A stretch of 60,304 bases of DNA, counting the filler, from Catajapyx aquilonaris (lineage: Eukaryota), in the NCBI GenBank assembly GCA_000934665.2. It is 3 parts of 3 records of this genome, joined end to end, with 100 filler letters (N's around TTAATTAATTAA, not from the genome) between each part and the next. Parts side by side here need not be neighbours in the genome. Positions count along the whole stretch, not along the records: positions 1 to 20,062 come from JYFJ02006341.1; 2 more parts are not named here. One strand, written 5' to 3'. Numbering within the stretch: the first letter of the stretch is position 1; every line of letters begins with the position of its first letter. Of the stretch, positions 1 through 56,718 are shown piece by piece. The notes beneath the pieces are model-generated. The model saw nothing but the letters and a program-made list of their open reading frames with translations, did not search any database and was not told the DNA's origin. A program made the translations under genes and the position numbers.

Positions 1-1489
1 CTCTTTCATTTGGTGTATAACACGTTCATGTGCGGTTGATAGGTACGGAGCTATATGCATTTGTAATTATACTATTCATTTGTAATCACCCTGTATATTG
101 TCACCTATGCATACAGGGATCTGGGTGCAGCTGGTTTAACTGACTACTAGGGTAAACAATTCACATCTTATTCACCTACCACCACATGAATTGGGGTCTT
201 GGGCAGTGGATCACCCTGCATCATAATCGTGCTACGAGTATCATCGGTTGTGATGCCAAAACGACTTTTATCAGTTTACTTTTTGGATCAATCTACTGTA
301 TATATTATGCCGCAGATTAGGCGTTATTAGTACCATAAGATTCATCAACTGCAAGTAATCAATGGGACAAGAATTCTTAAATTCGGAAACATTCCCATCC
401 ATATGAGGTACTGGTCTTGACAGGAGGCTATACTAAATGATTCACATCAAAAGAATCAGATTCTCTGTGATTTTCATCAGTGCATTATTTTGTGGTCCAA
501 TGAACCCGGAAGTGCAGAGGTCACTTGGAAGGATCCATCAAAAATCACATGCATTCGATTTGGCTGAAGTCCCTCTAGATGCGTCACTACAAACCTGGGG
601 CCGTCAGTGTCCAAAGTGGAACACCATGTATGTGGGCAAAAATTACGCACTGATAGTGCTGTAACAGGCATTTGGGTGTGTCTACAATGCGTCCTCAAGT
701 TTGGCAGAGTTGCACACTTTTTCACAGCAACCGTTACTGTAATTTACATGTTTGCATTTTGAATCCAGAGTGCGTAAGTTATAGCGACACGGTCAGCACT
801 CGAAGGTTAAGCATACTTTACATGTGACCCTAATCTGCAATTAACTAATAAAATGCTGCAATTATCTTACTTAGACATTTTAATTTCTGGTAGGGTCTGT
901 GCTCGGTGACCAAAAGTTTACTTATGCGAAAGTGTCAACGTTGTCAATGTCACAATAATTACAAATCGGAAGACATAGATGTGCTGGGGAGATGGGAGAA
1001 GCTTAGACCAAACTGATCATAAAGTCAGAACAAACTAAAATGATGTAGCGATATCTAGTGCAAGTCCGTTGCGGCATGCAGCATGTGTGAACGCAAAGTG
1101 CAAGCCCGTTAACACCGTAGGTTCTCATCATGACGCGCAGCTCCAAGGAAACATGACAGAAGGTAAATCTCCAGATAAGGTCATCGGCCGGCCCTTGCCG
1201 CACCCAAAAAACGCAAAAAAAATTGGAATATTTTTTCGCAATAAAATGTACACAAAAGTTTCGTCCTGATTGGCCCAAGGCAGGGTCAGCATCTAAGCTG
1301 TACGGTACCTGCGCTGGCGCACATTCCCACTCCCAACAGTCCACGACGATTGACTCTTCTTCTTCCTCCACCTCTCTTTCCGGCCAGCCATTTGGGTTGG
1401 AGCAGCAGAACGGTGAGCTACCAAAGTAGAGGAGTGTTCATCTGGCCGTGGTCAGTCTAGTGGGCATCGGACTCGAGGCTGGCAGAAGG

Positions 1490-4400
1490 ATGACCACTCT
1501 TCGTTTTGGGCTTATTCTGGCCATTGTCGTTGCTGTCTTGCTACCATGCACCTTAGCTGCGGACTCATGGTTCAAGTAAGTGTATCCATTCGATATATCA
1601 GACAATCCGGTACATCGTCATTGACGTTTCAGGATGCCGTCACCCTTCACCGTCGTTTGCAAGAATGGAACTTGCGTCAAAAAGGAAAGGACGGATTCAA
1701 CTGTGATTCAAAGTCTGGCCATGTGCAAACTTAGATGCGGAAGATATCGGGTCCTATGGCCACAACCTACAGGCGAAGTTGAACTTAGCCGTACCGTAGT
1801 TGCATTCAAACCTCAAAATTTTAAGATCACGCACCTAAACGCACCCACCCAGCGCGTCAAAGACTTGCTCAACCAAGCGTTCAAGATATTTCAGGGTTAC
1901 TTGTACAAGGTAAGACATGGAATGTCATGGCCCGGAAACTCTTCAGGTGTTTCATAATTGGTGCGTGACCTACCGCTGCGTTTCTCGTGCATGATTATAG
2001 CACCGCTAATATTTTAAATAGAACACTGATTCTGCATCTTGGATTTTGAGGGTCAAGTGCACATCAGAACATTTTAAATTCATTTTTCAAAGTGCTAATT
2101 ATGACAGCTAGAAAATTCCGAGAGGATGTGAAAATGCGTGTAAATTGCGTGCCAACACCTCTTTAGGCCATTCGGCCATACATTTTACTTACTGCGAAAT
2201 GTAACTTTGAGCTTTGCTAAAACAATGCACACTTCTGCTGGCAGATGCATCCGGAAAATATGGAGGGCCGTCGTACTGCCTTCGAACGTGAATTTGACAA
2301 TCAAGTGGAAAGCACCAGTATTCTTCTTGGGATTGACGTAGAAGAACCAGATGACCGTATCACACTGGACACTTTAGAGGGATATCGTCTCGAAATGGAA
2401 ACTCAGGTATATTCTCGTAATATTCTTACTGCCCTCATTATTTTACTATTCCCATCCTGAAATGGAGATAACACGCTATTATGAAAGATGACGAATTTTT
2501 TTACACGTTACGCTTCACGCCAGCTTGTGAATATAGCGCTAAGTTCTAGCCAGAAGGTAAGAAATCGTGGGAGATAAAATGGGAAAACAGTAGTTTTACT
2601 AGCCTGTAAAAATGCACCATTTGCCTTACCTTATATAAAGCCTAAAAGAGCTGCCGAAAGGGATAATATGAAAACTGAGCTAATTTGTAAACTAATGAAA
2701 ACATAATTTGATGAAACTGTTTTTCCCACGACATTAATTGTAAGACAGATTGCGTCAGTGATGTACTGTAATGCATTATTCGTCCGCAATTCACACTTCT
2801 GGGAATATACCTGCTCATCCGTGCATTTTCTGTAAGTAATACTGTTACTTCATTGTGTAACTTATCTGCTTTATAAAAGATCAACTTGGATATCTGAGAT
2901 CGAAGAAGGGTCAACAGACTGTGTACCAGAAATCGCTCTTATAGCTCAGCGGAAGAGCAACAGCTCAACTCAAGCTGAAAACATAAAATGTCATACGAAT
3001 AGGTTACATTTAGCACTCTGACACTGAGCTTGAGCTGGAGGTCCCGGGTTCGACTCCCGGTGAGGGCAATCTTGGTACCTGTCGAACACAGATAATGTGA
3101 GACAACTGGAAGTCTGGACATTAGCACTATTCCACAACTGAGGTCCGAATTCGATATTCGGATAGGATTTTCTTATGTGGTAGAGTATTGATAGGCGATT
3201 CTCTCTCTTTCCTTCATCAAGCGTAACACCCTTGGCCATTTTCCTCCCTATTTCCTTCCCTCATACCGCATTCTTGGCTTTAATAAATCAAACCAACTAT
3301 TTGAGATGTGGGAGAGACGAAGGGTGTCTGCCTGTTTGATTTTCCAGGGAAACACCGTACGGGTGGAGCTTCGAGCAGACACATTCTTCGGCGCTCGACA
3401 CGGCCTAGAGACCCTTAGCCAGCTGATTGCATATGACGAACAAAAGGAAATTCTGCAAATTGTGTCATCAGGAATTATCAGCGATCGTCCAGCCTTTCCC
3501 TACCGCGGTGTAATGCTGGATACATCTCGCAACTTCTTCCCCATCAAAAGCATCAAACGTCTGGTGGACTCCATGTCATACAACAAGCTCAACACCCTCC
3601 ATTGGCATCTTACAGACTCGCATAGCTTTCCCTTCTACAGTCAACGTGTCCCACAGATGACCCTGTACGGCGCATACACACCAAGGAAGATCTACTTCCC
3701 TGAACAGATCCGAGCACTGGTGGAGTACTCCAGGATACGCGGAGTCAGGATCATACCAGAACTGAGCACTCCTGGTCACACTGGTAATGGTTGGCAATGG
3801 GGTAGCCGTCAAGAGGGCCATGAAGAGATGGCATTGTGTGTCAACGAGGAGCCATGGCGAGAACTGTGCAGCGAGCCTCCCTGTGGTCAGCTCAACCCTT
3901 ACAGCGACAAGGTGTACGAAATCCTAGGAAAGCTATACCGAGATTTCCTGGACGTATTCGAGACACACGCTTTCCACATGGGTGGCCACGATGTCAGCTT
4001 CACTTGCTGGAACAACAGCAAATCAGTCAGGAGGTCCATCGAGGAGCTTGGAAGAAATGCCAGCGTACCAGAGTTCATGCAAATGTGGGTAAGATTCCAA
4101 ACCCGTGCTTATGGAGAGCTTGTGCGTGCCAATCGTGGTCGAGACATTGTGCCAATCCTCTGGAGCAGCAGGCTCATGATCCAAAGGGGTGTTGAGAACA
4201 TATTGGACCCGGAGCGGTATGTGGTACAGATCGGATCGGCCCTTAACGATCGACGCATTGCTAGCATCCTGGACAGAGGATACAAGGTGATCTTCTCTAT
4301 ACCAGAAGCTTGGAGTTTTGATTGCGGATTTGGCGGGGACAGTCCTCGTACTTGTCGACAGTTTCAACCTTGGCAGCGCATGTATGAACACAATCCGCTC

Positions 4401-4796
4401 AAGTAAGTATTTTTAACAGTCTCCATCTTGACCCAGTTGTGACTTTATAATTTGAATCGCAGGTTGGTCCAGACTTTGAACGTGACTGAACCAGTCGAGT
4501 TTCAGTCCACGCAGCTACTAGGAGGAGAAGGTTTGATGTGGTCTGACGTGGTTGATGAGATGGGTCTGGAGCCTAAAGTGTGGCCTAGGGCTGCAGCCAT
4601 TGCAGAAAGGCTGTGGTCCAACCCTGGGAGCAGCTGGAAGGATGCTGAACATCGCTTCTTGCATCACCGTCAAAGGATGGTGGAAAGGGACATAAGGGCT
4701 GATTCGGTCCAACCTGAGTGGTGTTATCAGAACCAAGGACATTGCAGCATGACCACCTCTGATGCTATGGCTGCTGCTGCCGCTAACCATCCTTAA
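1490..4796 (+). CDS. GH20 beta-N-acetylhexosaminidase-like protein (Hexo1/NAG type), predicted catalytically impaired paralog; exons 1490-1575, 1633-1909, 2245-2406, 3348-4402, 4463-4796
   Basis: Signal peptide MTTLRFGLILAIVVAVLL; Cys-rich N-terminus ending LWPQPTG; GH20 motifs FFGARHGLETLSQL, RGVMLDTSRNF, NKLNTLHWHLTDSHSFP, EPPCGQLNP, WPRAAAIAERLWSNP. All GT-AG junctions keep frame. The catalytic motif reads HMGGHDV instead of HMGGDEV. Confidence 0.93.
2935..3068 (+). ncRNA. tRNA-like element with ~60-nt insert in the anticodon arm, in intron 3 of GH20 paralog 1 (tRNA-derived repeat or atypical tRNA gene)
   Basis: Acceptor stem GCTCTTA/TGAGGGC plus A; D arm GCTC-AGCGGAA-GAGC; T arm CCGGG-TTCGACT-CCCGG; A and B boxes intact; anticodon region expanded. 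Confidence 0.55.
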
Positions 4797-7700
4797 ATAT
4801 GCTCCCGTGGTCATTTTGCTTGAATACAAATTCCTCCCAGGTTACCTCACTCGACATCAAGTTTTTTAAAAAAATCAGCATGTATGGTGTAAGAAACATA
4901 TGGTTGACATAATTGTACATACTATTTTTCTCCTGTTTGTTAATGAAGCGCGTCAATGTGAAATGAGATCATATGTCTGGTGACCCACATCACATTTTGT
5001 TCTCAGTGTCAAGGCTTCTTGCAAGACACTTCGTGATATCCGCATTCACTACATTGCATTGCATGGGTGGTATGAAACTCTTAAATAGTCAGTTACAGTT
5101 ATAATTATACCTATGTTATTGCTACTTGGTTCTGCGTGAATGGTTAATTTATTTACAGGTTGTCTGTTCCAGACTTCGACATACTTGCGTTTTCACTAAT
5201 TTATGTTTATTTATTTGTGATTTTTTCGCATAAGATGCCAATGTGAAATGTTTTATCAGTTGCTGTTGTTTAAATAAATAGTTCTACCAAAGCTATACTA
5301 TGAACCTTTTAACTACTGTTAGCACTGAATAATTTTTACCATTTTTATATTAGAAAAAAAATATGTTTGCACCTTTGCAGTGTACACTGAGGAGGGTATG
5401 GGATAGGGGGGGGGGGGGGGNGGGGGGTGAAAGAGGAGGTGGTGGAGAAGGGACCACGTATTGCAGCTTTTAACCTTCACCAACTGGTTTGTCAAGCGCA
5501 ACAATGCCTCACACGTCTCAAACAAGTGCACGAGAAGGAGCGAAATCAAATCAACCTCCGGTTTTATAGGTCAACATTATGCTAAATCACCCTAACATTT
5601 TTCCCAGAGGAAGCTCCTTTGAAGAAAGGAAAGAAGAAAAAAAGTGAAAATGGAACCTTATTATGATATTTACAGGCACAATGGCAGAGAAAGGAATCCG
5701 TAAACCTGGAAATAAAGCAAAAATAAGAAGAGTAATATAAAAAAATGAGGGCGGACGGATGTTACGTTGAGATATTTCCGCCACTTTAGGGTAGGAGTGA
5801 AAGCTAAAGGTTACATAATCGTGCGAAGTTTTGCGGCTTTCAGCTCCGTAATTGGAAAATTAGTTAGACCTTCTGATAAGAGCTCGGACAGCTAAATGCG
5901 ATACAGGTGCAAACACCAGCACGATAATTAGGACACTCTTTCTCACTTTTCGCGTGTCACTAACGAGGTCTGAATTTGCTCCGCACTTCAGTGGCACAGC
6001 TTACGTAAGATTCAGGATGAAATTCGGCATGTCTATTAGATATTATTCCTTTCACTCTAAGCAAGGGCAGTTATTTTAGGACACACACACAAAAAAATGT
6101 TCTTCACATTGCACCATTTGCCATATAACTTTCACAGTTGTCTTCTGTCAGTTATGTACCAATATGCTTTATGCACTTTTGGCGAATGCACCTCGACCAA
6201 TCGGGAACCTCCCAAAGTAATCTGACGGTCGTATTGTGTAGGCGTACAGTACAGTATGTTGTAGGCGCCTCAGAACCGTTCGGAGCCTGAACAGTGTAGG
6301 TAGAAGACCTGGACTTCTTAGGCATGTTGTCACGCAGGTGACTTTTTTCCTTCATTCTTCTTAGAAGAGGAGGTGGAAACATATACATACGTACACTAAG
6401 AGAAAGCAGTGTGACCAGCAGCTGCAAGCAGATTACACCAGTTTCGTGCTTCCTCTTCTGTTTGTGTATTGTTTTCGTGCCGGATTTGAATATGTGAGTA
6501 TATGAATATTGTTGACTAATGTATGTTCAAAATAGCTGTACTTTGTGTGTAATCAAAGGCATGAGAGCACCATTTTGCGATTATCAGTTGCACCTATCAC
6601 TACATTTTGTCAGCATTTTTATCGTATTTAGTCTTATCCTTGCAGATAGGCAGCAGAGAGGGGTCTAACCGGACGTCGACCTTCTCTAATCAGGTATTCA
6701 GTCGGTCGTGTGTCTTTGGATGAGCTGGTTGTTGTCGTCCAATCCTCCACTGCCATCAGTTAAAGGTCAGTCTAGAAGGACACTGCTGCATGTAAATGGT
6801 TGTGGCAATGTCATTGAATAGGGAATACTAGATATTTCTAGAGAATCGTTCATATGGATAGACTTGAATCAGGGCTTATTGTATTGTCATGAGCCGGCCG
6901 GTATGATGACATTTACAGAGTTCCGGGAAAAAAACGTTGACATCTGCCGGGTATGTCTACTCGTGTCATACTGTACAATGCTCTTACTGTGGATACAGAG
7001 TTCTTGTTCCGCACAAAAGTGAGTTTTATGACCAGTTTTTGCTGTCATTCCGGAGATCTATATGGGAAATATGCATAATCTAAAAACTCCCACGTGAGCA
7101 TAGATTTACACTAGAGAAGCATGATGATAACGTTTTATTATGGAAAATAGATTTCAACATTGGTTTGTTGGTGAATTTTAAAGATACATGAGTCAGAATG
7201 TGAGTGACCTTGGATGAGGTTACCAGCCAGTTCAGACGATCTTTTGTTCCAGAGGAGTGTCCAATGCCACACCTTGAAGGAGCTATTATCATTATAATCA
7301 GTACCTGTCTGCTGCTAACACAGTAGGGCTCATTACCATACTCGTTCAGTATTAAATTGACTCTGAAAAGTCTGCTACATTTTTTACTGAATATTTTTAT
7401 TTGTAAGTTATTGCTGTTTATAGGCTGCCTGTTACAACATGGATACTCTTACAAAGTTGTATTCTATCTGATATAATTCCTTCATATGCGTTATGACACT
7501 GAAAATAACAGAGGATTTTATACAATAGCTAAGTGGCCTGTGAATAAACCCGTTACTTTATAGGTTGGCTTAGTCATAAACCTTTTGTCAACTATTCTAC
7601 TGGTATCACTTACTTGACCGAGATTTCTGAAGATATGTGTTTTTCCATTAGCTTATCCGATTAGCTAAACAGATACCAGCAGTCAGTTTAACAAACATTT

Positions 7701-8331
7701 GATAACTTTTAAAAAATCTAGTCTTGAAGTGCGGAATATCTATCTGAAGCTACAGATTAACAATGAACATGGCTAAACCAACTTGTTACGGCTTATCATT
7801 CTGTATGGCAAAAGGCTACATTCTAGCCTCTGCGCTGTTTCAAGTGTCACCTTTACGGACAACGTAGATGCCATAAGATAAGCCAACCTTGATAATGGCC
7901 CTGCGAGAGAGTTTAAAAAATAAGTGAATGTTGTAGGCTACAAGTGTCTCAGATAGGAATTAGAGGTCAAGGTCACTGCTGCATTCCACCTGCACTATCC
8001 TAGGTTTGATTCTCACCATAGGAGATCTGATAGGAAGGATATACTCTAACAACCGTGGATCTGACCAACTGTTACATACATGCATATTATTAAGGTTAGA
8101 CCACACTCTGAAAATGTTAATCAGGCTCAAAAATAATGATGTTGTCGATGTCAGTAGAATATAATGAGGAAGTTACGTGTGTTGTCTCAGTATTGAAATG
8201 GAATAGGCCATTCAGATTTCCCTATGGCACTTCAAGGAACTTGAAAACAGTTGGGAGAGTCACATAAACACACATGATTGCGTGTGACGTCCACATTTAA
8301 TAAAATTGGTCTTTCTCTTTGCATAGGGACA

Positions 8332-11235
8332 ATGCTGAAGGACATTCTCGGTGGTGTCCTCTTGGTGTGCTTCCTGTTTCAGCACCACTCCCAAGCTCTT
8401 CAATGGCACAGGTAAGCAGTTTTTGTTTTTTGTGTCTGTGTATTTTTTTGCCCATTAAGGAAACAGAATAGGTCGACCCTTCTGGACTTATTCCATAACG
8501 GAGTTACGTGGCAAAGGCCATGTGCATATTTTAATAATCTGCCGGCTTGATCCGTTAGTCCTGACCTGGAGTGATTATGCAAATCCGAGAGTTTTAATGG
8601 TCAGAAAAAGTTATGGCTTCTAGGCATATTTTGATTGCTTCAGTCCAGTCAAGCCAGACGACAGAAGTGATGGAATAATAGTTTTAAAATAATAAACATA
8701 TGCACTACTGTGCAAGCACAATAAAATTAATAACGTCACACTTCGGATTTTTTGATACCAATGACTCAATGAGAGAGAGAGAGAGAGAGAGAGAGAACAT
8801 ATAATAATTATTATGCATATGAATACAAGTAGGCTCCGTTTTACGACGGGGCTAGGTTCCAGAAAAACAGGGTAGTAAAATGAAAAGCCGTAGAACGAGG
8901 TCTACCTGTAGACAACGCATCGCTAAAAATAAAAGGAGCACTAACATTAAGATAATATTGTGTGTTTGGACCACGGTTTGGACGTGGTTTGGACACATGA
9001 TTTTCAGCGATGTGTATTGTATCGAATTTTTTGATATTGTAAATTTTCATTTCTGACGTAATTTTTAAAAGGTTGTGATGTGAAACATCGTAAAATGGAG
9101 CGTCGTAAAACATACTGTAGTCAGGGTCTACATGTCTTGTCATGCAGGTGTTTCTGTTGACATTCCGCAGCATGCTTAATGATTTTTTTCATGACAAAAG
9201 CACTAGTAAAATACTTTCAGATACAATAATTATTACGTTCATAAGCTGTACAGCAATATTTGAGCTGCCTTTTAATCTACCTCACCTATGTGCAGATATC
9301 CATCGCCATGGACATGGGTATGCCAGAATGAAACCTGCGTGAAAACGGAACGGGGCGAATCTTTGGAATACATCTCCTTGAACACCTGCAAGATGACCTG
9401 CGGACAATACGGTGCCCTCTGGCCATTCCCCTCTGGCCGGGTGTCCATTGGCAGCAAGGTGCGTTCCTTCAAGCCTGAGAACTTGGACTTCAACACCATG
9501 TCCGCTCCGTCCGAAAAGGTCCGTGAGATGCTTCTGGAAGCCACCAAGATATTTAAATCGGAACTTAACATGATGCATCCAGAATACGCCAATTCCAAGA
9601 ACGGTCCTTTCAACCGCAAGCGTTACGACAAAGCAGTGGAGAACACCACAGTGGCAGTGGCAATCAGCGTGTCATGGCCCGATGAGGACCTGAAGCTCAA
9701 TACTGAAGAAAGCTACACGCTGGCTATCATGGAATCGGGAGATGAGGTCAGTAACGTAGTAGCCTGAGATTGACATTTCTTACGTGCATATACCATTGTT
9801 TTCACAGGTTTCAGTGGTAATATTGGCCAACACGTTCTTCGGTGCCCGACATGGCCTGGAGTCCTTGAGCCAGCTGATTGATTACGACGAGCAACATGAC
9901 AGCCTTCAAATAGTGTCGGAGGTGACACTGACAGACAGGCCTGCGTTTCCATACCGTGCCGTCACCCTCGACACTGGCCGAAATTACGTTTCCCTTGACG
10001 CCATCCGCCGTACCATCGACGCCATGTCGTACAACAAGCTCAACACTTTCCACTGGCACATGACCGACACCCACAGTTTTCCCCTGTACAGCGTTCGACA
10101 GCCCCAACTCACCCTTTACGGAGCATACACCCCGAACAAGGTGTACCTCCCAGAGCAGATCAAGGATCTGGTTGAATATGCCCGTGTTCGAGGAATTCGC
10201 ATCGTTCCTGAATTCGATGCCCCGGCTCACGTCGGCAACGGTTGGCAATGGGGTCCAAAAGACGGGAAGGGTAACATGGTAGTATGTCTCAACCAGGAGC
10301 CATGGGCAAGTTACTGTGTAGAACCACCGTGCGGACAGCTCAATCCTACCAACGACAAAATCTATGACGTGTTAGGAGACGTCTACAAAGATATGTTCGA
10401 CGTGTTCCAGAGTGACGTGTTCCACATGGGAGGTGATGAGGTTAATTTCAACTGCTGGAACACCACCAAAGAAATCATCGATTACATGGACTCGAACAAC
10501 ATTCCTCGAGATGAACAAGGTTTCCTGGCTCTCTGGAACGGATTTCAAACAAAGGCTTACGAGAAGGTATGCATCATGTGAGGTGCAGATCCATTCAAGA
10601 CCATCCGCACCTATACTCATTACACTCTCATATTGACATTTCAGGTGAAAGAAGCTAACAAAGGGGAAGACCTACCCATCCTGCTGTGGACTAGCCATCT
10701 GACCAACAAAAACTACAGCGTCAAATACCTGGATCCCATGCGCCATATCGTACAAATATGGACATTAGGGATTGATACCATGATTGCCGACCTGGTCGAG
10801 AATGGCTTCCGGATCATTTTCTCAAACTACGACGCCTGGTACCTAGACTGTGGGTTCGGAGCCTGGGTCGGAGAAGGTAACAACTGGTGCAGCCCTTACA
10901 AAGGATGGCAACTCGGCTATGACAATAATCCTATGAGTCTTCTGGCAGCCTTCAAAAGGCCAGGGTTGGTTCAGAAGGCTATTGACGAAGGGTTAGTTCT
11001 TGGAGGGTCAGCTGCCATGTGGACCGAACAAGTAGACGAGGCTGCTCTGGATGCCAAAATCTGGCCCAGGTCAGCTGCTATGGCGGAAAGGCTTTGGTCC
11101 AACCCGCAGACATCGTGGAGAGCGGCAGAATTCAGGATGGTGCATCACAGGGAGAGGCTCAAGCAGAGAGGAATTTTTGCTGATGCCCTTCAGCCCGAAT
11201 GGTGTCACCAGAATGAGGGTCACTGCTACGCTTAA
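8332..11235 (+). CDS. Chitooligosaccharidolytic beta-N-acetylglucosaminidase (GH20, Hexo1/NAG1-like); exons 8332-8411, 9296-9746, 9808-10566, 10645-11235
   Basis: Signal peptide; intact HMGGDEV (DE at 10435-10440), PEFDAPAH, CVEPPCG, QIW, WYLDCG, NNWCSPYKGWQ, MWTEQ, WPRSAAMAERLWSNP; splice junctions in frame. Confidence 0.96.
8770..8795. repeat. (GA)n microsatellite
   Basis: Direct observation. Confidence 0.9.
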
Positions 11236-11860
11236 GATGCCATAATGTCCATTTTGCCAGAATTTCACGGCGGCTTTTTTAACTTTCAGCGTGTCTCGCA
11301 ATAATAAACAGTCATCTGAATTCCTTTACTTTTACTGGCGATGACCAACCTGTGTCATAGCCGGCCATGTGGCGGGCGCTGACCCGTCGGTCAATCATAA
11401 GTCAGTTTGCAGTTGCATGTGCACTACTATGTGCATGTGGTTGTCCAAATGTTAGTTATTTCCGTATAGTACTTAATAATATAGGCATATGATTGCCGTG
11501 CCACAATAAAAGGGGTGTCAGCATTTTGCTTTTTTTTGTTGTTTGTAAAATACACATTATTCAGCAGTAACTTAAATGTAGTGACCTCTCTCTAGAAATC
11601 TTAATACCACTATATGGATTTCTTACCTACTTGACAGGATGGATGAATAGATCGAGGCATAAATTACAGGTCCTTTATTAAAGTCACCCTTCCGCCCTAG
11701 AGCGAAACTTAGGTAGGACAAACACAGGTGCTGTGTGCAACTGGCAATAATGGTCAGAAATTTTGGGTGATAAAATATACAATTTCTCGAATGTACCAAA
11801 GGCTCTAGCAAAATCAGGATTGCGTCATTTTATTGCGGATAGAAACAGCAAAATAATATA

Positions 11861-13505
11861 TTAAGCAAGAAGAGTGTTGCATCCAGTGGCCATTTGTTGG
11901 TACGACAATCTAAATCCGATTTCATCAGCAGCTACTGTCACGACGTTGTCAGATCGAAACTGCACTACGATCGGTCCTTTTCCTCGAGCTGAAAAAATAA
12001 GCACAGGTCTACTTGTAGAACAGCAATATTCTACAGTGTTTTAAGATGCTTACATATTACGTAGGACATCAAAGCGGTACCAGTCCCCTCCATATTAGGC
12101 AGCATGTTGCCACATAATTTACTCCTGGTCGCGTCCATCGGATTCATGCTCCCTGACTCAGGAATGACTACGTAGTCGGTTGTACAGTCCTGTCAACAAG
12201 AATGAACTGTAGTTGTACACCACACACTATGTACTGTACAAGACAAACCTGCTGGGGGGTAGTAGTCCCAGTTCCAACTCGAAATGACATGTTATCCAGG
12301 GCGGTAAACTGCGTTCTGCAAGTGTCCAATGCTGGTCTGATACAAATTGCGTAATTTAAATTTCTCAGGTACATTCCTGTACCCCCGTTGAAGTTGAAAG
12401 ATTGGATAGTACCCGCCCTGTCCGTGAAGAACTGCAAACATCCCGTCGGAGCTGTGCATTAAATTTTTTAAATTATTCCAATGCCTTGAATAAAATTGTT
12501 CACCCTGTACAGTACCTGCCATCTCGCTGTTGCATGGAATTTGAGTCATTTTTATTCGCCAACTATGAGCCATGTCGCTGGTGGTATCAAACATAAGGCT
12601 CAGTGAATCCGTGCCCTGAGATGTATCCACCGGGATGTAAACTGCAAACAAATGACATATGAACTTGCGCAAAGATAATCAGTACAAATGAATCTTACGG
12701 TGTTGGCCAGAGTTGTTTCCACACAAACTCTGAAATCCCAGCACACTAGAAAATGGTGAACGAATAAAGAATCGGTCCCTCTGGCAAGTTCCAATGTTAG
12801 GTCCCGTTGTTTCCGGACTGGCCAGGTTGAATTGCAGTAAGTCCAACCGGACTTGGCATATACTACGATCGGATACTTCCAGCTTCATGTCGCACGCACC
12901 GCTGTTGGTGCTGGCTTGCGGATATCCAGGATTGACGAAATAGGCCACTCTCTGAGAAGTGCTGGCTCGACAGCTTAGCTCCACTGACAAGTGAAGCTTA
13001 TATCAATATATTGCATGATTATGAATAATACGAGTAATTCTTACGACAACAATGCGCCTGTGTCCATCACAAAAATTTGGACAAGGCTTGCTGACTACTG
13101 ACATATGTTGATAAGATTGAGCCAGTGATAGTGTGACATGAAGACGTCGATTCCATTACTAACAAATAGTATAAGAATGAACAAGCTTACCCAGACAGCA
13201 AACTCCGAATCCCTGGGCACAAGTCCCAACAGCCCTTCCTCGAACGGCCGTACATTCCCTGGCAGTATAACATATTCCTTCGTCGTTACCAGCGTTGCAA
13301 GAGGTGGTTCCGAATTGAAATCGAAGAAGCGCCAAAACTGGCATAACACATCCGATTAATGGCTTGTTAATGACCAACCAGAGATCTGCAACTCACATTT
13401 CTCTTTCCTGCTCAGATTGTTGGCTTTGTCGATGACGTCGGTGGTCCTTCCCGCGGCCATGGTGGCGAAGAAGAGTAACACAACCACATATCGACAACTG
13501 GCCAT
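11861..13505 (-). CDS. Secreted arthropod CUB-domain protein (Cys-rich N-terminal module plus two CUB-like domains); exons 13505-13397, 13337-13191, 12983-12699, 12641-12516, 12451-12249, 12189-12054, 11988-11861
   Basis: Signal peptide; GICYTARECT..GTCAQGFGVCC; YFVNPGYP; ICQVRLDL; LCGNNSGQHLY; WRIKMTQIPC; APTGCLQFF; YAICIR; CTTDYVVIP; GFRLSYQQ. Junctions are phase-consistent. TATA-like element near 13600-13607 and AATAAA near 11828-11833 on the minus strand. Confidence 0.92.
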
Positions 13506-30928: not shown

Positions 30929-31427
30929 TAATAATAATAATGCAACAACAACAACAACATCACGACATTTCCCTATGAGGGGTAGTCAGTGATGACGGGA
31001 GACGCAAGCTAACCCAACATATGAACTAATAAAACATGAGAATAAACCTAAAAACGATCCGTCCCACCCCTGCCCACCTCAGACATATTTACCTATTTAC
31101 CCATTAATTAACCTATGCCATTTACACCTATCCAAGCAAACAACCCTAGCCTCGTCAGCCACGTCCATGGTCCTATTGACACAAGAACGTCTCGACTTAA
31201 CACTAGCAACACCCTTAAGACACTGACCCACCTGGTCCAACCATGTCTTCCTAGGCCTACCCTTGCCCCTCTTACCAACTACTCCACCCAAATAAACCTT
31301 CTTCACAATCTCCTCCTCCTTCATCCTCTCCACATGGCCAAACCACCTTAGAGTAGACCTACACACTACCTTATCTTTAACAGTCTCCTTAACATTACAC
31401 CTCTGCAAAATCTCCTCATTAAATATA

Positions 31428-31489
<62 letters not shown>

Positions 31490-31818
31490 GTCCAGGGTAG
31501 TGCTTGACCTCATCTGAGGTATGCAGCACGGACCTCTATTTTATTATGTCAAGTACATTGGAACCTTTATACGTAACGCCCCGGCCCACGGGCAGGATGA
31601 CAGGAGGGGATGTGCAAGGTCTAGTGCAATGTCTTATCTGTGGACATTTTTAGTGAACTCCCCCGGGTGGTTTAGTCTGTGGAAATACCACACGAGACGA
31701 AGCCAGAGGTGACCCTGAACTCTGCACGAGATGAAGGGGGTGTCCCCGGGTTGGGATCGAACCGGGGACCTTAACATCCGTGGGCGCATACGTTACCTCA
31801 GCACCACTCCGCCTCCCC
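30929..31818 (-). mobile_element. Chimeric retro-insertion: full tRNA-SINE (31818 to ~31425) followed by an RTE-type LINE 3' end (~31425 to 30929)
   Basis: One 17-bp TSD TGAGTATGGATGAACTA (30912-30928 and 31819-31835); RTE ORF tail LRWFGHVERM..KVY.G.V.GKRGKGRPRKTWLDQV. Confidence 0.82.
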
Positions 31819-42612: not shown

Positions 42613-45600
42613 CTGTATCAAAGTTGCATTTGCCAAGTTTCCTCCATGTCCAACCAGTGCCAAGCTCTCCTGAAGGAGAGATGAAGCATGATGGAGTCGG
42701 TGAAGCACAGTGGCAGGAGGCAAGCCAGCCAGCAGGGCTCTTCTGGACCTGAATGCTGCCAGCAAGGCACGGGGAAGAGGCTCCGACTGGCTGCACTCTT
42801 TCAGCAGTGACGGGAGAGATTCAGCACTACTGTACAGCTTCTCAGCCTGTGAATCCTCTCCTAGAAGCCAGTAAGCTGCCACTCCCACAAGAGATGCCCA
42901 CCACAAGGCAACCTCATCTTTTCCTGTAACAATTAAATTGTGAAATCAGCGTAACATTATGCCTCTATGCATAACAAGAAAATAGCTCTAAATGTCCACT
43001 CTAGTGCTAAATCTGAAAGCACTCTTACGTGTGATTTGAATTGTGGTTGTGTTGACACCAGATGCAAAGTTGTCAGGGACTCCTGCTGTGGACGCACTAT
43101 CCATGAGCAGGTGCACATACGTCAAGGCATCACTGGTCTGCAACTTGCGCATGGGTTCCTCATCACATGCATCACCTGTTCGGCTGCCAGGCATCAGGAG
43201 GGTGAGCACAGCCTTCTCCAAAAGGTGCTCACGGTATACCTGTCAACACACGAGTGGTCATTTTGTTATTATTTGTGCCACATTATTTTAATATAACTCT
43301 CGTCCAAAAATAATTAGATGTTAGCATTTGATGTACCACTAACCTGCATAACATACGATAGAGGGTCGACTCTAGACTCGCTGGAACTGAAGAGAGGTGG
43401 GGAGGAGACAGAAGCTCCCTGATCGAAAACCCATTTGTGTGCCAGGAAGAACCTGTGCCCATAAGGTGCCAGTAACCACTGAAGCCTGGGGGCCTGCAGG
43501 CCAGATCCAAATCCAATACATGCCTTCTTGGCCTGCTTCAGCAGCCCACGATTTGCCCACTGCAGGAAGGATGGATAGCTTTCTTTCACTCTGAGCGCTG
43601 CAGTGACGTAGAGCTCAGCCAGGAAAGCACCTCCTACATGGAAAAATATCCATTGTTTATTTGTTTGCTTTGGTGTTACTTTGCCAATCTATGATTTCCA
43701 CATTTCTGTGTCACAGGTACACGCCATGTTTTTAATTTTTTTCTTAAATACACAAATAATGGCATATTACTCTTACCATCTCTGGTAGCCTCTTCCCCAG
43801 CTATCTCTGCCATATTGAGAGCAGCAGAGGCCAAGTAGGCTCCAAGTGCTTGACTCCTCTCTCCAGCCACTCCAGTAAGGTGCAGCTGATGGAGACGATG
43901 GTAGACCACAGCCACCTCTTTCAGGTGCTGCCTCAGATGCTTCCGGCTCACTCCGTCTGCAACCACTTTTCCAGCCAGCAGCCCAACCCTGCGACCCACC
44001 CACAGGCGGTGGAACACTGAGCGGATAATTTGCCAGGTCAGGCCCGTGGCCCTCTCCCAACTTGACTGGGGCAAAGGCCGACCAACACATTCCAGTGCTG
44101 CTGCAAGATGGTCCCAGGCAGATTGGTAATTATCCTGTAGCAGAAAAAAAGTGTTATTTACACAAGTGAGCTATAAAAAAATTTACTTTTAGTACATCTC
44201 TTTCTAAACCACCCTCATCTAGATTTAAAAATTTTTACCACTACTTTTGTAAATGTATGTGATAGTTTTTGTCACATACTCATAGTTGTTAAGGTAATAC
44301 TAACCTTGGCAAGATCAAAGTCAGCTTGCTTTCGGTACCGCCAGAAGTGCACTGCTGGTCCTGACTTGCTGTCCACCACTGGTTCTCCCCACACAAACAG
44401 CTTCAACATGCACAGCATCACAACTAGTAGATTGACAGCCCACATTCCAGCACTTTGCATCCAACCCCAAACTTCCACCTCTGGAGCTGTCAAAATAACG
44501 ACATTTAATATTCAGCTAGCTGCGAGTTAGCGAGTTTCCTTACCTTGGAATCCAAGTATGGTTCTTCCACCAACATTTCGGGATGTCTCATATGAAGCAG
44601 ATGATGAAGATAATGTTGGTAGAAGAGCGCCAAGAGGATTGAAGGCCAGAATGCCAAACAAAAAGACGCAAAGAACCAGACGAGTATGGTCCAACATTCC
44701 ATAGACAACCTTTGATGAGGAAGGAGCAGGACTGCCAGAAGACTCCATGCTTGAAGGTGACAGTGTCTAGAAAGAAATTGAACTTCATAAGTACAAATGT
44801 TTATCATGTGCACAGATGTCCACAACTTCCATCTGCATTTGTGGAATTTTGCCATACTGTAAAAATTTCGATCAAGTGATGTACAAATTTCTAGGAAGTG
44901 TTTCAACAACTTGTCAATCGGTTTTAAATTACAAGTTCGAGTCCCATTCCTGCAACCCAAACTAGTAATGTCACCCACCTCGTGCTTGAGAAAGTCATCA
45001 TCTGGGCTAGACGGCCTGGGTGAAGCATCGTCAGCCATTGAGGGTGAGGAAGCATCAGACCTGGGTGGTGTGAGATCTCCTCCACTGTGACCAGACATGA
45101 CTTCCACCCTCTGTTCTTGTTGTGGCTGTCCTCCCGTAATGAGATCCTGTAGGTTGGGCTTCTTTCCACCTCCCATCTTCAGTGCCAGGTTCTCCTGCTT
45201 GAGCCGGGCATTGGCCTGCTGCAGGAAATGGATGTATTCGATGGCCTTACGCAACACAGCAGATTTGTTCAGCTTCGAGTCCTGTCCTGCCACCATGCTC
45301 CGCAACTCCACTATCTTGTCATTGATGGAGGTGCGGTAACGACGCTCAATGGCATTGTGGGCACTTCTCTTGCCCTCCCTCATGCGAGGGGGCTCAGATC
45401 CACCACGGATTGCAGTTGCAGTAAAGGGGGATGCAGCAGAAGGGGAGGATGAAGGTGAAGTAGTGAATGAGAGGGAGGCTGGTGAAGCCAAACGGTGGAT
45501 GGGGAGGCGGTCTGTCTCTAGCATCAGAGGTATGCCTGTAGTTAGAATGGTACCTGAACCTGAAAATAACATAAGCAATCATAAAACACTGCTGGAAATG

Positions 45601-47736
45601 TGATTATTGAAAATCATCAAAATTTTCTAACAACTTCAGTAGAAAACTAAAGTGCAACTACTGAATTACCTGTATTGACCAGAGTATGAATTTGCGTTGC
45701 TGTGCCAGCTGTGGCACTGATACAACCAGTCACACTGCCAGTTCCTGTAACAGCCGTCAGTGGTGTAGTTGTTGTGTATGCCACCACAGTAGGTGCTGCT
45801 GCCAAGGCTGTCACTGGAGCCACCTCTGCCTTCAGGGTGGGGGTAACTGGTCCAGTCTGCAGCACCAACTGCTGCACCTGATCTGCTGGTAGTTGGCTCA
45901 GCTTCTCCAGTAGTTGCTTCTTCTGGTCCTGCAACTGCTGCTGGAGCTGAAACTGGATCTGTGAACCTTGGATAACTTGCTGAAGCAGTTGTTGTTGTTG
46001 CTGCTGTTGCTGTTGCGGCTGAGGTTGCGGCTGTACTTTTTGCAGTGGCCTTGGCTGCTGCTGACGAACCTGGATTTGTGGGCTAATCTGCACCATTGCT
46101 GGTCGTATTGTTGCAGGTTTCATCAGCATTGCTTTCAGCTCAGGTTGGGGATGCACCAGCTTCTGCGCGGGTGTCTCCTGGACATCCATGGGTTGGCTGC
46201 ATCGCTTTGGAGCCGTACGAATTGGGCTAGTTTGAGTGAAACTTTGCACCTGAACAGGTGCTTGTGGGAGATGCGCTGGACTGTGAGTTGCAGGGCTTGA
46301 AGGAAGGGATGCTTGTAGTTGCTGTTGTTGTGGTGGTGGCATCCCCATAAAGTCAATGTTGACATCCTCAGGATTAAGTAGAGTCTCATCTATGCATGAG
46401 AGTAGCGCCTCATCTGTCAGCAGGCTGCTGGCTTTGTTGAAAATGTCGTAATTTTGGAACATGTCTACAAATAGAGATTGGCTGGGTTATAATCAATCAA
46501 TTACAATGTGTTACGAATATCGTTTCATAATAATACTGCCTGCCAATTTCAGTCACTGTGTCATCAGGATTTATTACCATTGCATTTTAAACTGCAGGTG
46601 CAAGCTTTCGCTTGAAATAATTAATAATTATTGCATTGATGGTAAGGGCATTATGTGATGCGAGTTCATGGCACACAATTCATGTTGTCACCAATTATTA
46701 AGGGCCATGTTATAACTTGTCCTCTGGCCTTGAAACAAAAATAAATGGTTTAAGGGCACAGCCATCATCACTACAATAGGCAGTAACTTCTTAGAAAGAG
46801 AGCACTCCCCTCCTAACCTTCAGGGCACTGAGAAAGCCTGCCGGTTACAATTCATTATACAGTGAAATCGGCCTGTAATGGCCCCTAGATAAGGTGGAAA
46901 CTTGTCCGTCATTAAACATTTGTTTGGCCCTGGGCCACGCTTATCGATGCCTTTCTTTATACATAAAGGTAATTCGTCAGTGCAGATAATTTTAGCAGAA
47001 CTGAGTGACCCAGCTATGACTGCATGCATAATTTGTAAGTATTTCTGGCAGCATTGTTGTATTGTTATTGATCCAGCTACAAATCATTTACAAGGAGCAA
47101 TATTCTATGTCCAACGTACCACATTGGGATATCCCTAAAGGTTACAGTGCCTGCATTCACATTCTCCTATTACAACAGGCATAGTCATGTTAGATGCCAG
47201 TATGATTAAGCAGTCCATGTGAGATCCCACCTCAGGCACTATACAGTCATGCTTCATTGCAGTGTTCATATCTCATCATTGCCTAATTGCACATCCCATG
47301 TATGAAATTTTTTGAACCATGCACTAGTGACACTGTAGTAAACAATGTGACATGCTGCTGTTGGTGTGACAGCTGCTTGAAATACATCAGCCAATGACTT
47401 TTCAGTACTCCTAATGGCACCACCTCATTTCCTTCATTACTGAGCAAGTGCATTTTCCATAAGTGCACACTGCATACACCACCGCACACTGCAAACATCT
47501 GTGAAACAAGTAAATGGTGGTAGTACGCATGGTACGCTACACCTGACACCTCCACACAGTTGGCACCTGACCTTTTCCCTGAACATGACCTGTCCGTAGC
47601 CCCAATCCCTGCCCATACCATCGATATCGTCGATGTGGTTCATGCTGTAATCCGTCTGCATTCCGTCTCCTCCTGCAGCACCTTGGGAGGGGTCCGCCGT
47701 GCCGTCCGCCGTCGACCAGCCCCTGTCGTCCGCCAT
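42613..47736 (-). CDS. SREBP: Sterol regulatory element-binding protein, 3'-partial; exons 47736-47619, 46464-45670, 45559-44979, 44766-44544, 44486-44305, 44134-43777, 43633-43344, 43239-43029, 42923-42613
   Basis: N-terminal DDIDDMFQ; bHLH-Zip [24 protein letters not shown] with the SREBP-specific Tyr; DHTR-TM1-NP; S1P site RTIL; TM2; [30 protein letters not shown]. All junctions in frame. Final exons not found before the spacer. Confidence 0.97.
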
Positions 47737-49482: not shown

Positions 49483-51715
49483 TCACCCCCACCCATCTGG
49501 ATTTTCTGATTTTGGTGATGCTGTAGCTCCAAGTGGAGGGGGATCAGCTTTTTCTTGCTGGGCTTGCAGAATTACATTCATAAGTTGTGTTTTCAAACGG
49601 AATTTTTTGTTTTCTGGCACTTTCTTGATTTCAGGAATCAGTGACATCATGAACAGTGTGTCAGGGTCACTTGCTGGGAATAACTGCTCTTTTCCTTGCT
49701 GTGCTACTTTTAGTTTGTGAACCTCTACCGATTCGTCGTGTTCGTCTTTCTTTTTGCGAGGACGTTTTGCCAGCCGTGGGGGACCAGGAGGGTTTTCTTC
49801 AATCAGCACTTGGGCAAATTGTTCAACACTCGCACTTTCTTCTTCCATGTTTGAGTCTGTTGAGCCGCATACTGATTCCAAAAAGCTAAGCTGCTCAAAG
49901 TAGATATACTGTCGTTTTCTACCCGAAGCAGTAAATCGTCCACTTTTCTCGCATTTCTGTTTGAGAAGTTCCCTACGGTAGCAGTCTCGTAGGCTTTTCC
50001 ATCGTCGGTGGAGCTGCTTACCTGCAGGAAAAAAAAACTATTTGTAATTTCACTTTATATGGTACCGGTATAACTATTTTAGGGGATGAATTTATTCTTA
50101 TGGTATACTTTTCTACAGGTATACAATCCTTCCCTAAAGTTTAGGACCACCCCATTCAGAGTTTTTAAAATTATTTCTCAAGCTTACACTTTTTTATTTG
50201 CTACTCCGTGCTGGAGCCATTGGCTCCCTTATGGGAGTGGAATACCACCATTTTTCTTCCGAATTTTCGTTCGCATTTTTCTCTCCGGTGCAGGGATCAG
50301 GATAGGGATTTGTGAGGAGGGGACACTGGTGCAAGTGCGTTGTCTTTATGTTGGGGGTCGTGTGCAGTCCCTCAGCGGGTCAGGTTGCAAGACAACCCCC
50401 AGGGTGCGGGTCCGAAACCTACCACCGACACCGCACCTCCCCTTGGATGAGTCAAGGATAGGAAAGGAAGGGGGCGGCGGTGGCCTATTATTTACGGAAG
50501 CGACCCCGGAATTTTCTTGGGAGGGCCGTGGGAAACCACAGAAAACCACGGTCAGGATCGCCGGCCACGGGACTCAAACCCAGGACCTCCCGATTAGCAG
50601 TCGGACGCCTTATCCACTCCAACCTGCTTCGGTATTCTCAACCTTTCAGTACGAATGGTTTTAACGAAGAGGTGCCTTCATGTTTGTGGCAGAATAAAGG
50701 ATTCAGACAATCGGCGTTTATACTGCGCCGGTATGGGGGGATATTCCTGAGTGTCAACAAAAAATATCTACAACTACAGGCTAACCAGGGCACGCAGGTA
50801 CATCGAATGTACGTAAATTCGGCATTCTTCCCAATAAAATGTAGGATTTTCCACAGACTGGGCTTTAGAGTCTAGACTCTATAGCCTCTAGACAGAGAAT
50901 TATTGTCTAGAATTCTAGATCATCAAAACATGCTGCCTTATACACAACTTTGTGCATGATTGTGATGGTGTCAAATTTGAAGACAGTTGAATATATTGTT
51001 AAAAGGTTCAATTACATGGAGCACTGCCCCAAGGAGGAAGGGTGACAAAAAAACAGGGGAAAGTCTGCACTAAAATACCTTTTCAGCCCTCATCAGGGCA
51101 AACTTCCTTGGCAAATGCAAAATATTGCTTAGCAAGTAAATTAAGGCTAGTGAGCTGTGTCTCTCTTGCCCCCCCCCCCCCCNNNNNNNNNNNCCCCCCC
51201 CCCTCCCACCCCCATGCAAATATTTAACATTAAACGAATTCAATGTTAAACAATGGAGAAAATGTTTATAAAAATGTTTGCACATATAGTTTGTCATGTT
51301 CAGTTGTCTTATCTGAAAAGCCGTACTGCTGTACTGATACAACAAATACACTAATATAAGAATATATCATTGGGGAAATTTTCAAAAATCTGATCAAAGA
51401 TTGCCAATTTTGAAATACTTAGAAATAAGCTCAAAAAACTACGTCAGTACAATGGAAAAGACAATGAACCTATATAGTACTGAAGTACTTACCAAGAAGG
51501 TTCTTTTCCAGACCATCTCTTCCCTCGAAATCAGTGTCGAATATGGCGCAGATCTCATTCCAAGCCCGTTCCGTGGCCACATTGTCCTTGTACTCGGCAG
51601 CTGATGAGTCCCAAATAGAGGGACGGGCCTCGATTTCGGTTATAAAATCTTCCACATCAATTTCTTCTACTAATCGCACTATCCACTGTGGGAAACCGCC
51701 CTTTCCTCGGGCCAT
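49483..51715 (-). CDS. MADF-BESS transcription factor; exons 51715-51493 and 50021-49483
   Basis: MADF: FITEIEARPSIWD....YKD.....AWNEI | ..RWKSLRDCYRRE..QYIYFEQLSFL. BESS: DPDTLFMMSLIPEIKKVPENKKFRLKTQLMNVI. Phase-1 junction in frame. Confidence 0.92.
50195..50630 (-). mobile_element. Composite SINE (family-D head, family-A-like body and tail) in the MADF-BESS intron
   Basis: 50460-50630 matches the 33060-33347 element; 50240-50345 matches the family-A body; stem-loop tail near 50200-50240. Confidence 0.75.
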
Positions 51716-56248: not shown

Positions 56249-56543
56249 ATGCCGGAGTGCGCTGTGGCCACTTGCAAAAATCACGACAAAGCAACCAAAG
56301 GAAAAGACATACGGTACTTTACATTTCCCAAGGACCAAAAAATGAGAAGTGCCTGGATAACGCTTATGAAGAGAAATGACTATTTTAATCCAGGCGTAGC
56401 ACGAGTGTGTTCCATCCATTTCTCCGAATCTGATTACGAGCGTAATCTAAGCATGGAGCTTATGGGTGTGCAGCTTTTCCGCCATCGTCGAGCTCTGAAG
56501 AAGGATGCTATACCTAGCCTTAACATGCCTGGAACACATGAAG
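56249..56543 (+). CDS. THAP-domain first coding exon
   Basis: MPECAVATC...YFTFPKD....W...MKR......RVCSIHF..SDY...LKKDAIPSL (C2CH, P, W, F, AVP-like box); donor G|GTGAGC. Confidence 0.88.
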
Positions 56544-56718
56544 GTGAGCAATACGTACACTTGAGTCAATAATCTTTTGCATTGGTGACCATGGGTGTAT
56601 AGCCAGGGAGATTCTCAGTCTCTCCCTCCCCTGCCATCCAGCAAGGATCCCTTCCATCAGGATCTCTCTTTTATTTCCTCCGTCCGGCAAGATTTTTAGT
56701 GTCAGTAGTGCACAATAA

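Follow-up and report, generated by a model that had tools for sequence, protein, structure and literature searches.

A candidate non-hydrolytic GH20 protein of Catajapyx aquilonaris and its relatives that lack the catalytic glutamate

We analyzed a stretch of DNA of 60,304 nucleotides (the window) from Catajapyx aquilonaris (GenBank assembly GCA_000934665.2). At 1490-4796 on the + strand, it contains a five-exon gene of glycoside hydrolase family GH20, which we call G1, with a coding sequence of 1914 nt (637 codons plus TAA). The product does not have the catalytic Asp-Glu pair of its family, and it has also lost several of the residues that bind the substrate, while the gene is intact and the fold seems to be as well. 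Judging from sequence comparisons, G1 belongs to an old pancrustacean clade, of which it is apparently the most eroded member, and it probably encodes a functional, secreted, non-hydrolytic protein with the GH20 fold.

Replacement of active-site residues in G1

At 3.5 kb downstream of G1, the same strand carries another GH20 gene, G2, whose product is 48.6% identical to that of G1. The motifs of G2 are canonical: PEFDAPAH, CVEPP, HMGGDEV, VQIWT, DAWYLDCG, GAWVGEGNNWC, and MWTEQ. The corresponding motifs of G1, all on the + strand, are not. First, the catalytic Asp-Glu is replaced by His389-Asp390 (codons CAC GAT, 3987-3992) within HMGGHDV (3975-3995), so the adjacent pair of the family pattern H-x-G-G-D-E is missing. 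Second, PEFDAPAH has become PELSTPGH (3756-3779), with the His retained and the Asp changed to Ser, and CVEPP has become CSEPP (3867-3881), with the Val of the +1 site changed to Ser and the Glu retained. Third, two pocket residues are gone: the Trp of VQIWT is Gly in VQIGS (4224-4238), and a Tyr is replaced by Ser in EAWSFDCG (4305-4328). Fourth, the loop that carries the +1 Trp in G2 is three residues shorter in G1 and has no Trp (GGDSPRTC, 4332-4355; confidence in the structural model described below is low there). Finally, MWTEQ is MWSDV (4536-4550), in which the stacking Trp is retained and the Glu that binds O4 is Asp. Every substitution listed in a preliminary description of this stretch, including the His-Asp of HMGGHDV, is present at its place.

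We also compared G1 with the Ostrinia enzyme OfHex1. In the phmmer alignment to OfHex1 chains, the His-Asp of G1 lies opposite the Asp-Glu of OfHex1, and the Gly, the Ser, and the shortened loop lie opposite QVW, LYFDCG, and the NNWC loop, so the pocket and loop changes were confirmed by this check as well. In OfHex1 numbering, G1 retains Arg220, Asp249, His303, Glu328, the ILW Trp, Trp524, and Asp477. The 2-acetamido group of the substrate is held by a three-residue aromatic pocket (the equivalents of the ILW Trp, the QIW Trp, and the WY Tyr), and just one of these three, the ILW Trp, is kept in G1. The chitinolytic +1 subsite (Val327, Glu328, and Trp490) is reduced to its Glu. We take Trp448 and Tyr475 of OfHex1 to be the pocket Trp and Tyr, as a provisional assignment of both number and role. 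The other residue numbers in the preliminary description (Asp367, Glu368, Val327, Trp490, and Glu526) do agree with the available text of a paper on OfHex1 (PMC3531433).

According to that text, His303, Asp367, and Glu368 form the catalytic cluster of OfHex1, with a hydrogen-bond network that runs from Asp249 through His303 to Glu368 (PMC3531433). Around the -1 sugar, Trp524 stacks and Glu526 binds the C4-OH; the +1 site consists of Val327, Glu328, and Trp490, and the W490A mutation raises the inhibition constant of TMG-chitotriomycin, which mimics a chitooligosaccharide, by 2277-fold (PMC3531433). A GH20 enzyme from Vibrio loses its activity when the Asp-Glu pair is mutated to Ala, Asn, or Gln (PMC4752478). 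Since the residues for hydrolysis are absent from G1, as they are from the Vibrio mutants, G1 would lack the substrate-assisted mechanism of the family.

An intact gene with a preserved fold

The preliminary description held that the open reading frame (ORF), signal peptide, splice sites, and cysteine scaffold of G1 are intact, and they are. All five exons are on the + strand. Exon 1 (1490-1575) contains the start codon and a predicted signal peptide (Met1-Ala23, 1490-1558) and ends in phase 2 at a GTAAGT donor. We judged the signal peptide by eye, from a basic n-region, a LILAIVVAVLL core, and the putative cleavage site TLA|AD. Exon 2 (1633-1909) encodes a Cys-rich N-terminus and the onset of a GH20b-type domain, exon 3 (2245-2406) encodes the middle of this N-terminal domain, and exon 4 (3348-4402; 351 amino acids) encodes its end and most of the GH20 barrel. 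Exon 5 (4463-4796) encodes the last strand of the barrel, with MWSDV, and a C-terminal helix with a Cys pair, and it ends with the TAA. The four introns all begin with GT and end with AG, their acceptors are rich in pyrimidines, and no stop codon interrupts the reading frame. The mature protein has 12 Cys, all of which align with the 12 of G2, and the product has 4 N-x-S/T sequons. The GC content is 50.4% in the coding sequence (53.8% at third codon positions) as compared to 39.9% in the introns. AATAAA at 5273-5278 (+) is the only hexamer resembling a poly(A) signal within 800 nt past the stop codon, and it may serve as one.

Intron 3 of G1 contains a tRNA-like element (2935-3068, +) that scores 43.9 bits against the Rfam model RF00005 (E = 7.5e-8). 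It spans 134 nt and hence has a large internal insertion. ARAGORN called no tRNA in positions 1-12000, including this element. We regard it as a probable tRNA-derived repeat or pseudogene.

Turning to the fold, exon 4 of G1 matches PF00728 with 222 bits (E = 1.9e-65; the cut-off is 22.3), and exon 5 adds another 39.1 bits (E = 7.7e-10). For the N-terminal domain, PF14845 gave just 21.7 and 17.2 bits on separately scanned exons (the weak 17.2-bit match is to exon 2 alone), as compared to a cut-off of 27 bits; full-length relatives that align end to end with G1 carry this domain. Among solved structures, the best phmmer match of exon 4 is OfHex1 (E ~1e-92, 347 of 351 residues). We also modeled exon 4, alone and so lacking the last strand and helix from exon 5, with AlphaFold2 and a 46-sequence alignment. 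The model has a mean predicted local distance difference test (pLDDT) score of 86.9 and a predicted template modeling (pTM) score of 0.84, with low confidence confined to the region around the shortened loop. The top Foldseek matches of the model are OfHex1 entries (3nsm has a template modeling score of 0.83). As modeled, the GH20 barrel fold is preserved in G1.

The losses in G1 are concentrated in the active site. In an alignment of 180 canonical relatives, 111 columns reach an invariance of at least 95%. G1 differs at 8 of the 14 active-site columns and at 10 of the 97 others (Fisher's exact test, one-sided, p = 1.7e-4), where the list of 14 sites was guided in part by the preliminary description's own list and the canonical relatives were picked to match G2 at those sites. 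Put another way, 87 of the 97 invariant positions outside of the site are retained, and several of the 10 that are not flank site residues. With a stricter list of 11 residues of the -1 subsite, 5 of 11 columns have changed as compared to 13 of 100 (p = 0.016). Together with the matches to PF00728 and OfHex1 and the model, these counts bear out the earlier claim that functional residues were lost preferentially while the fold was kept.

A pancrustacean clade without the catalytic glutamate

The preliminary description knew of no well-described equivalent of G1 among arthropod GH20s. In fact, there are many in the databases. Three word-indexed searches and one exhaustive HMMER search (the best 150 of 13,677 matches at E <=0.001) yielded 445 proteins. 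Of the first 387, 339 have the Asp-Glu pair, 27 lack it, and 21 do not extend across the motif; of the 58 others, 18 have the pair, 39 lack it, and 1 is gapped. So, among the matches listed, 423 proteins cover the catalytic pair and at least 66 of these lack Asp-Glu. The proteins without the pair are annotated as "chitooligosaccharidolytic beta-N-acetylglucosaminidase" or as "-like". The description had also proposed searching for GH20s with GGHD; His is at the first position of the pair in none of the 423 proteins, and so it is seen only in G1 within this set.

Among the matches listed, the clade of G1 comprises 47 database proteins; they come from springtails, decapods, krill, and mantis shrimps. 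A profile built from 12 members gives scores of 826-1152 bits within the clade and of 799 bits at most for canonical proteins, so it tells the two apart. The profile added members from Panulirus, Homarus, Petrolisthes, Scylla, and Penaeus (four species), as well as from Palaemon, Macrobrachium, Halocaridina, Meganyctiphanes, and Oratosquilla. None of the 47 has Glu at the acid/base position, Glu368 (41 have Asp, 3 have Gly, 2 have Leu, and 1 has Ser), and none has Trp at position 448, Tyr at position 475, or Trp at position 490. At these four positions, G1 has Asp, Gly, Ser, and Thr, respectively; the strand reads PILWSS, which keeps the Pro of the P-I-x-x-S-S pattern. Asp367, Asp249, and Glu328 are present in all 47 proteins, and Arg220 in 46.

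Phylogenetic trees group these proteins together. We ran quick searches with IQ-TREE, and the only support values are from the Shimodaira-Hasegawa-like approximate likelihood ratio test (SH-aLRT). In a 35-row tree with a mixture model, the 10 rows without Asp-Glu form one clade (SH-aLRT of 99), which is still recovered after eight motif segments are deleted (95). In a 77-row tree with the LG+G4 model, a 12-row group that consists entirely of proteins without Asp-Glu has a support of 88, or 92 if P0258 is included (13 rows), and G1 joins the springtail family with a support of 99. On the simplest reading of these sequences, the canonical site would have been dismantled before springtails and malacostracans split, and the gene would have been kept since. 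Many of the clade members are ORFs of 650-780 amino acids on contigs of 2.3-3.0 kb, which suggests that they derive from mRNA.

The malacostracan members of the clade, which are annotated as "beta-N-acetylglucosaminidase-like," are from Oratosquilla, Homarus, Panulirus, Penaeus, Palaemon, Macrobrachium, Scylla, Petrolisthes, Halocaridina, and Meganyctiphanes. They have HMGGDD instead of HMGGDE and lack the pocket Trp and Tyr and the +1 Trp. They are about 42-45% identical to G1 and are longer (about 690-780 amino acids), and some of their replacements are unlike those of G1: the ILW Trp is His or Tyr, Val327 is Lys, and Glu526 is Tyr or Phe.

Oratosquilla, Palaemon, Macrobrachium, and Halocaridina each have two proteins without the Glu on contigs of equal size, which hints at conserved tandem arrays. 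We also noticed a second set of degenerate GH20s in decapods (P0053, P0069, P0071, P0074, P0098, P0102, P0447, and P0460), with SK, SE, QE, TQ, EE, or SQ as the catalytic pair; Cherax, Procambarus, Palaemon, Macrobrachium, and Eriocheir are among the genera represented. Six of these are in the 77-row tree and fall within the canonical decapod clade, apart from the clade of G1; P0447 and P0460 were not placed.

The springtail family

The nearest relatives of G1 are springtail proteins annotated as "chitooligosaccharidolytic beta-N-acetylglucosaminidase," which are 57-59% identical to G1 over their full length and are its sister group in the trees. The full-length proteins in the 90%-identity cluster of P0003 are from Orchesella cincta (ODM91114.1), O. 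dallaii, Folsomia candida (XP_021954759.1), and Allacma fusca. G1 and the springtail family share CSEPP and the replacement of Glu368 by Asp, and neither has the pocket Trp, the pocket Tyr, or Trp490. In the Cys-rich N-terminus (residues 30-95), G1 and P0003 are 71% identical, as compared to 42-49% for canonical comparisons. Unlike G1, the springtail proteins keep Asp367, Glu526, and the Asp of PELD, and they have a longer +1 loop and a 17-residue insert after GWQ.

Conservation of the springtail protein without the Glu extends over its full length: the identity is 92-93% between genera and 99.2% between the two species of Orchesella, while canonical GH20s from the same genera are 59% identical (85.3% for congeners) and a third paralog is 72% identical. 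The genera Orchesella, Folsomia, and Allacma span two orders of springtails. Because of the contrast between 92-93% identity and 59% or 72%, the protein that lacks the catalytic Glu is the most conserved GH20 of these springtails. This unusually constrained protein, with HMGGDD, corresponds to P0389, P0395, P0396, P0397, and P0399 in the P0003 cluster. In three springtails, a protein without the Glu and a canonical GH20 are on contigs of equal size (38,845; 40,888; and 11,037,654), which suggests that these genes are a tandem pair, like G1 and G2.

Constraint on the lineage of G1

We asked if G1 has evolved faster than its constrained springtail sister. We counted 64 lineage-specific changes for G1 and 56 for P0003 when the canonical consensus served as the outgroup (p = 0.47), and 63 and 50, respectively, when G2 did (p = 0.22). 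Positions that are invariant in the clade were kept at similar rates by G1 (106 of 124), P0003 (114 of 139), and the Folsomia protein P0027 (113 of 133). By these counts, the G1 lineage does not appear to be accelerated. As to the selected, non-catalytic role that was proposed in the preliminary description, the comparative data do favor a maintained, non-hydrolytic protein, given losses that are common to a 47-member clade and a similar number of changes on the two lineages.

Several observations weigh against this interpretation. The trees are quick searches with one kind of support value. Across the clade, Asp367, Asp249, and Glu328 are always kept and Arg220 nearly so, and the replacements are themselves conserved within subclades (PIIHSS or PMIYSS, DQWRLDC or DxWNFEGP, and LWSYE), which suggests a site under selection and would allow for a new catalytic activity instead of none. 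G1 alone has His in place of Asp367, which all 47 relatives keep, and two residues still present in the springtail proteins, Glu526 and the Asp of PELD, are also gone from it. At the most conserved columns, lineage-specific changes are more numerous in G1 than in P0003 (8 as compared to 2, or 11 as compared to 6). These changes and losses could indicate relaxed constraint in the lineage of G1. In the protein collections, we found no protein that is identical or close to G1: the springtail proteins, at 57-59% identity, are the closest among the matches listed. A search for close orthologs that would serve to compute the ratio of nonsynonymous to synonymous substitution rates (dN/dS) also found none; a scan of metagenomes gave just one locus (L001, 44% identity).

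What might G1 do?

On balance, we think it probable that G1 encodes a functional, non-hydrolytic protein. The gene would be live, and its product would be secreted, N-glycosylatable, and disulfide-bonded, with the two-domain architecture of GH20 kept. With Asp in place of the acid/base Glu and His in place of the Asp that orients the acetamido group, the protein should be unable to perform substrate-assisted hydrolysis, and we infer that it acts by binding instead of cleaving. It might bind a ligand or serve as a scaffold in the extracellular or molting space, or it might be the partner of an active GH20. The pocket is predicted to be wider and more polar than that of the enzyme, while the stacking Trp524 and the contacts made by Arg220, Asp249, His303, Glu328, and Asp477 would be kept.

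The ligand is unlikely to be a terminal N-acetylglucosamine (GlcNAc) in the canonical pose, given the sequence of the site. The preliminary description had suggested that G1 binds GlcNAc or chitin, by analogy with the imaginal disc growth factors (IDGFs). We considered a canonical lectin for chitin or GlcNAc and marked this idea down because the acetamido-binding and +1-binding residues are lost; the analogy itself holds in part (see below).

A broader proposal, about which we are more tentative, is that G1 and its 47 relatives form a family of secreted, non-hydrolytic "hexosaminidase-like proteins" derived from GH20. Its origin may have been a tandem duplication of a chitinolytic N-acetylglucosaminidase (NAG) that took place in an early pancrustacean, and the family would have persisted for hundreds of millions of years since, with a pocket remodeled for a ligand other than terminal GlcNAc. 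The family might then stand to GH20 as the chitinase-like proteins stand to GH18, and its constraint in springtails would far exceed that of the enzyme.

Alternative explanations

One alternative, which is compatible with a non-catalytic role and would be a mechanism for it, is that G1 pairs, as a non-catalytic subunit, with an active GH20 (for example, G2) and influences the stability, localization, or specificity of this partner. We consider this possible but rather unlikely. GH20s from animals are active as dimers, which may be built from paralogous subunits; human HexA (alpha-beta) is an example. Dimerization is discussed in the available text of a paper on GH20 phylogeny (PMC2492878). The adjacency of G1 and G2 on the same strand and the springtail pairs on contigs of equal size would also fit. 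However, the linkage in springtails is deduced from equal contig sizes only, and linkage may persist without functional coupling. Furthermore, G1 and G2 are just 48.6% identical and differ in their intron positions.

Second, G1, and perhaps the whole clade, might still be an enzyme, with a remodeled Asp-Asp (or, in G1, His-Asp) pocket. Its substrate might be different (for example, a sugar that is charged or not acetylated), or its mechanism might be (for example, transglycosylation). Comparable residue pairs can be catalytic in other folds: the GH84 O-GlcNAcases use an Asp-Asp pair, and NagZ of GH3 uses an Asp-His dyad. The carboxylates that the clade retains, the replacements that are conserved within subclades, and the conservation of the springtail family over its full length would fit a site under selection. 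However, 6 of the 47 members have Gly, Leu, or Ser at the second position of the pair, so a carboxylate is dispensable there, and G1 does not even have the otherwise invariant Asp367. Also, the residues that position the acetamido group as a nucleophile are gone, which removes the basis for substrate-assisted catalysis. Overall, we find a new activity doubtful.

Third, G1 could be a recently dead or dying gene, from a clade that has long been functional, that has yet to acquire a stop codon or a frameshift. This would account for the loss of Asp367 in G1 alone, for the loss of Glu526 and of the PELD Asp kept by its nearest relatives, for the excess of changes at conserved columns, and for the low identity (57-59%) between G1 and a family whose own members are 92-99% identical. 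Also, no transcript-derived protein that matches G1 was found among the matches from the protein searches. But 637 codons and four introns are intact, all 12 Cys and 87 of the 97 invariant non-site positions are kept, the overall rate equals that of the sister lineage, and the composition of the coding sequence is still distinct from that of the introns. By our own rough estimate, a terminal branch of ~0.4 changes per site should have broken a neutral ORF. A dying gene seems about as doubtful to us as a new enzyme.

Finally, we give almost no weight to the idea that G1 is an ordinary hexosaminidase gene that was misread or misassembled. An N does occur at ~5421, in a poly-G run outside of the gene, but at least 8 separate site positions and a 3-codon loop deletion would have to be wrong, and five of the states (Glu to Asp, Val to Ser, and the loss of Trp448, Tyr475, and Trp490) recur in independent relatives.

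The neighboring gene G2 and other features of the window

Three exons of G2 (9296-9746, 9808-10566, and 10645-11235; 9296-11235 overall, + strand) encode a canonical GH20 with HMGGDEV. A probable first exon with the signal peptide is at 8332-8411 (+). Strict criteria for hydrophobicity gave no candidate for this exon; a relaxed search gave 8332-8411, which is supported by the ORF, a GTAAGC donor, and a phase-2 junction like those of G1 and of the springtail proteins. With this exon, the product of G2 has 626 amino acids. Both G1 and G2 have a phase-2 intron after the signal peptide, and in both a phase-0 intron precedes the catalytic domain, with an offset of three codons between the two genes. 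Each gene also has private introns. Given the differing intron positions and the 48.6% identity of the products, the duplication is old. When we searched across the window with tblastn, we found no copy of GH20 beyond G1 and G2. Among the matches listed from the protein collections, no relative of these GH20 genes exceeds 59% identity. An (AG)n microsatellite is at 8766-8797, upstream of G2, and a poly-G run, which contains the N mentioned above, is at 5401-5427.

Farther along the window, long ORFs at 44505-46486 (-) include a helix-loop-helix domain (PF00010, E = 3.8e-17), with a Gln-rich ORF upstream; by eye, they resemble a basic helix-loop-helix-zipper factor of the SREBP type. There are also an ORF with MADF and BESS domains (49483-50037, -), a Myb/SANT-like ORF (PF13837; 52846-53199, +), and a THAP ORF (56165-56572, +). 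These domains are typical of DNA-binding genes that are domesticated or derived from mobile elements. An ORF at 31097-31540 (-) has a long poly-Tyr tract beside a "...RWFGHVERM..." segment and has no match in Pfam; the segment presumably resembles the tails of retroelements.

Significance and comparison with known systems

GH20 hexosaminidases are treated as uniformly active in the turnover of chitin and the trimming of N-glycans in arthropods, and OfHex1 is a pesticide target. The family and the concept of a pseudoenzyme are both known; this clade seems to have sat in the databases under the names of enzymes without being recognized. The available part of a review of crustacean chitin genes calls HxGGDE conserved and does not mention exceptions (PMC8002005), and a search for terms in the available text of the GH20 phylogeny paper gave no passage on inactive members (PMC2492878). 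Within the scope of our literature search, which did not extend to subscription journals or supplements, we found no paper that describes arthropod GH20 proteins without the catalytic Glu.

If the entire clade is without its catalytic Glu and its GlcNAc-binding aromatics, then counts of "NAG" genes in crustaceans and springtails overstate their enzymatic capacity, and there would be a new class of secreted proteins with a glycosidase fold, perhaps with roles in molting, the cuticle, immunity, or reproduction. The springtail member is a strong candidate for knock-down experiments, given its 92-93% identity between genera as compared to 59% for the canonical protein, and Folsomia candida is a laboratory species. 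As the extreme of the series, G1 offers a natural test of which residues still matter.

Among GH20 proteins with solved structures, the closest comparison is with OfHex1, which shares with G1 the two-domain layout, the pattern of Cys, and Arg220, Asp249, His303, Glu328, Trp524, and Asp477. OfHex1 differs in having Asp367-Glu368 (His-Asp in G1), Val327 (Ser), Glu526 (Asp), the Trp of QVW (Gly), the Tyr of LYFDCG (Ser), and a full Trp490 loop. The other comparison is with the GH18 chitinase-like proteins, such as the IDGFs of insects and YKL-40 of mammals, which, like G1, have a secreted glycoside hydrolase fold that has lost its catalytic acid; they have been retained by selection. They belong to a different fold family, and they keep sugar-binding aromatic residues and bind chitooligosaccharides. 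Because G1 has lost the binding aromatics that the GH18 lectins keep, the analogy holds only partly: G1 resembles them as a glycosidase fold without its catalytic acid and may resemble them in being maintained, while its ligand is probably of another kind.

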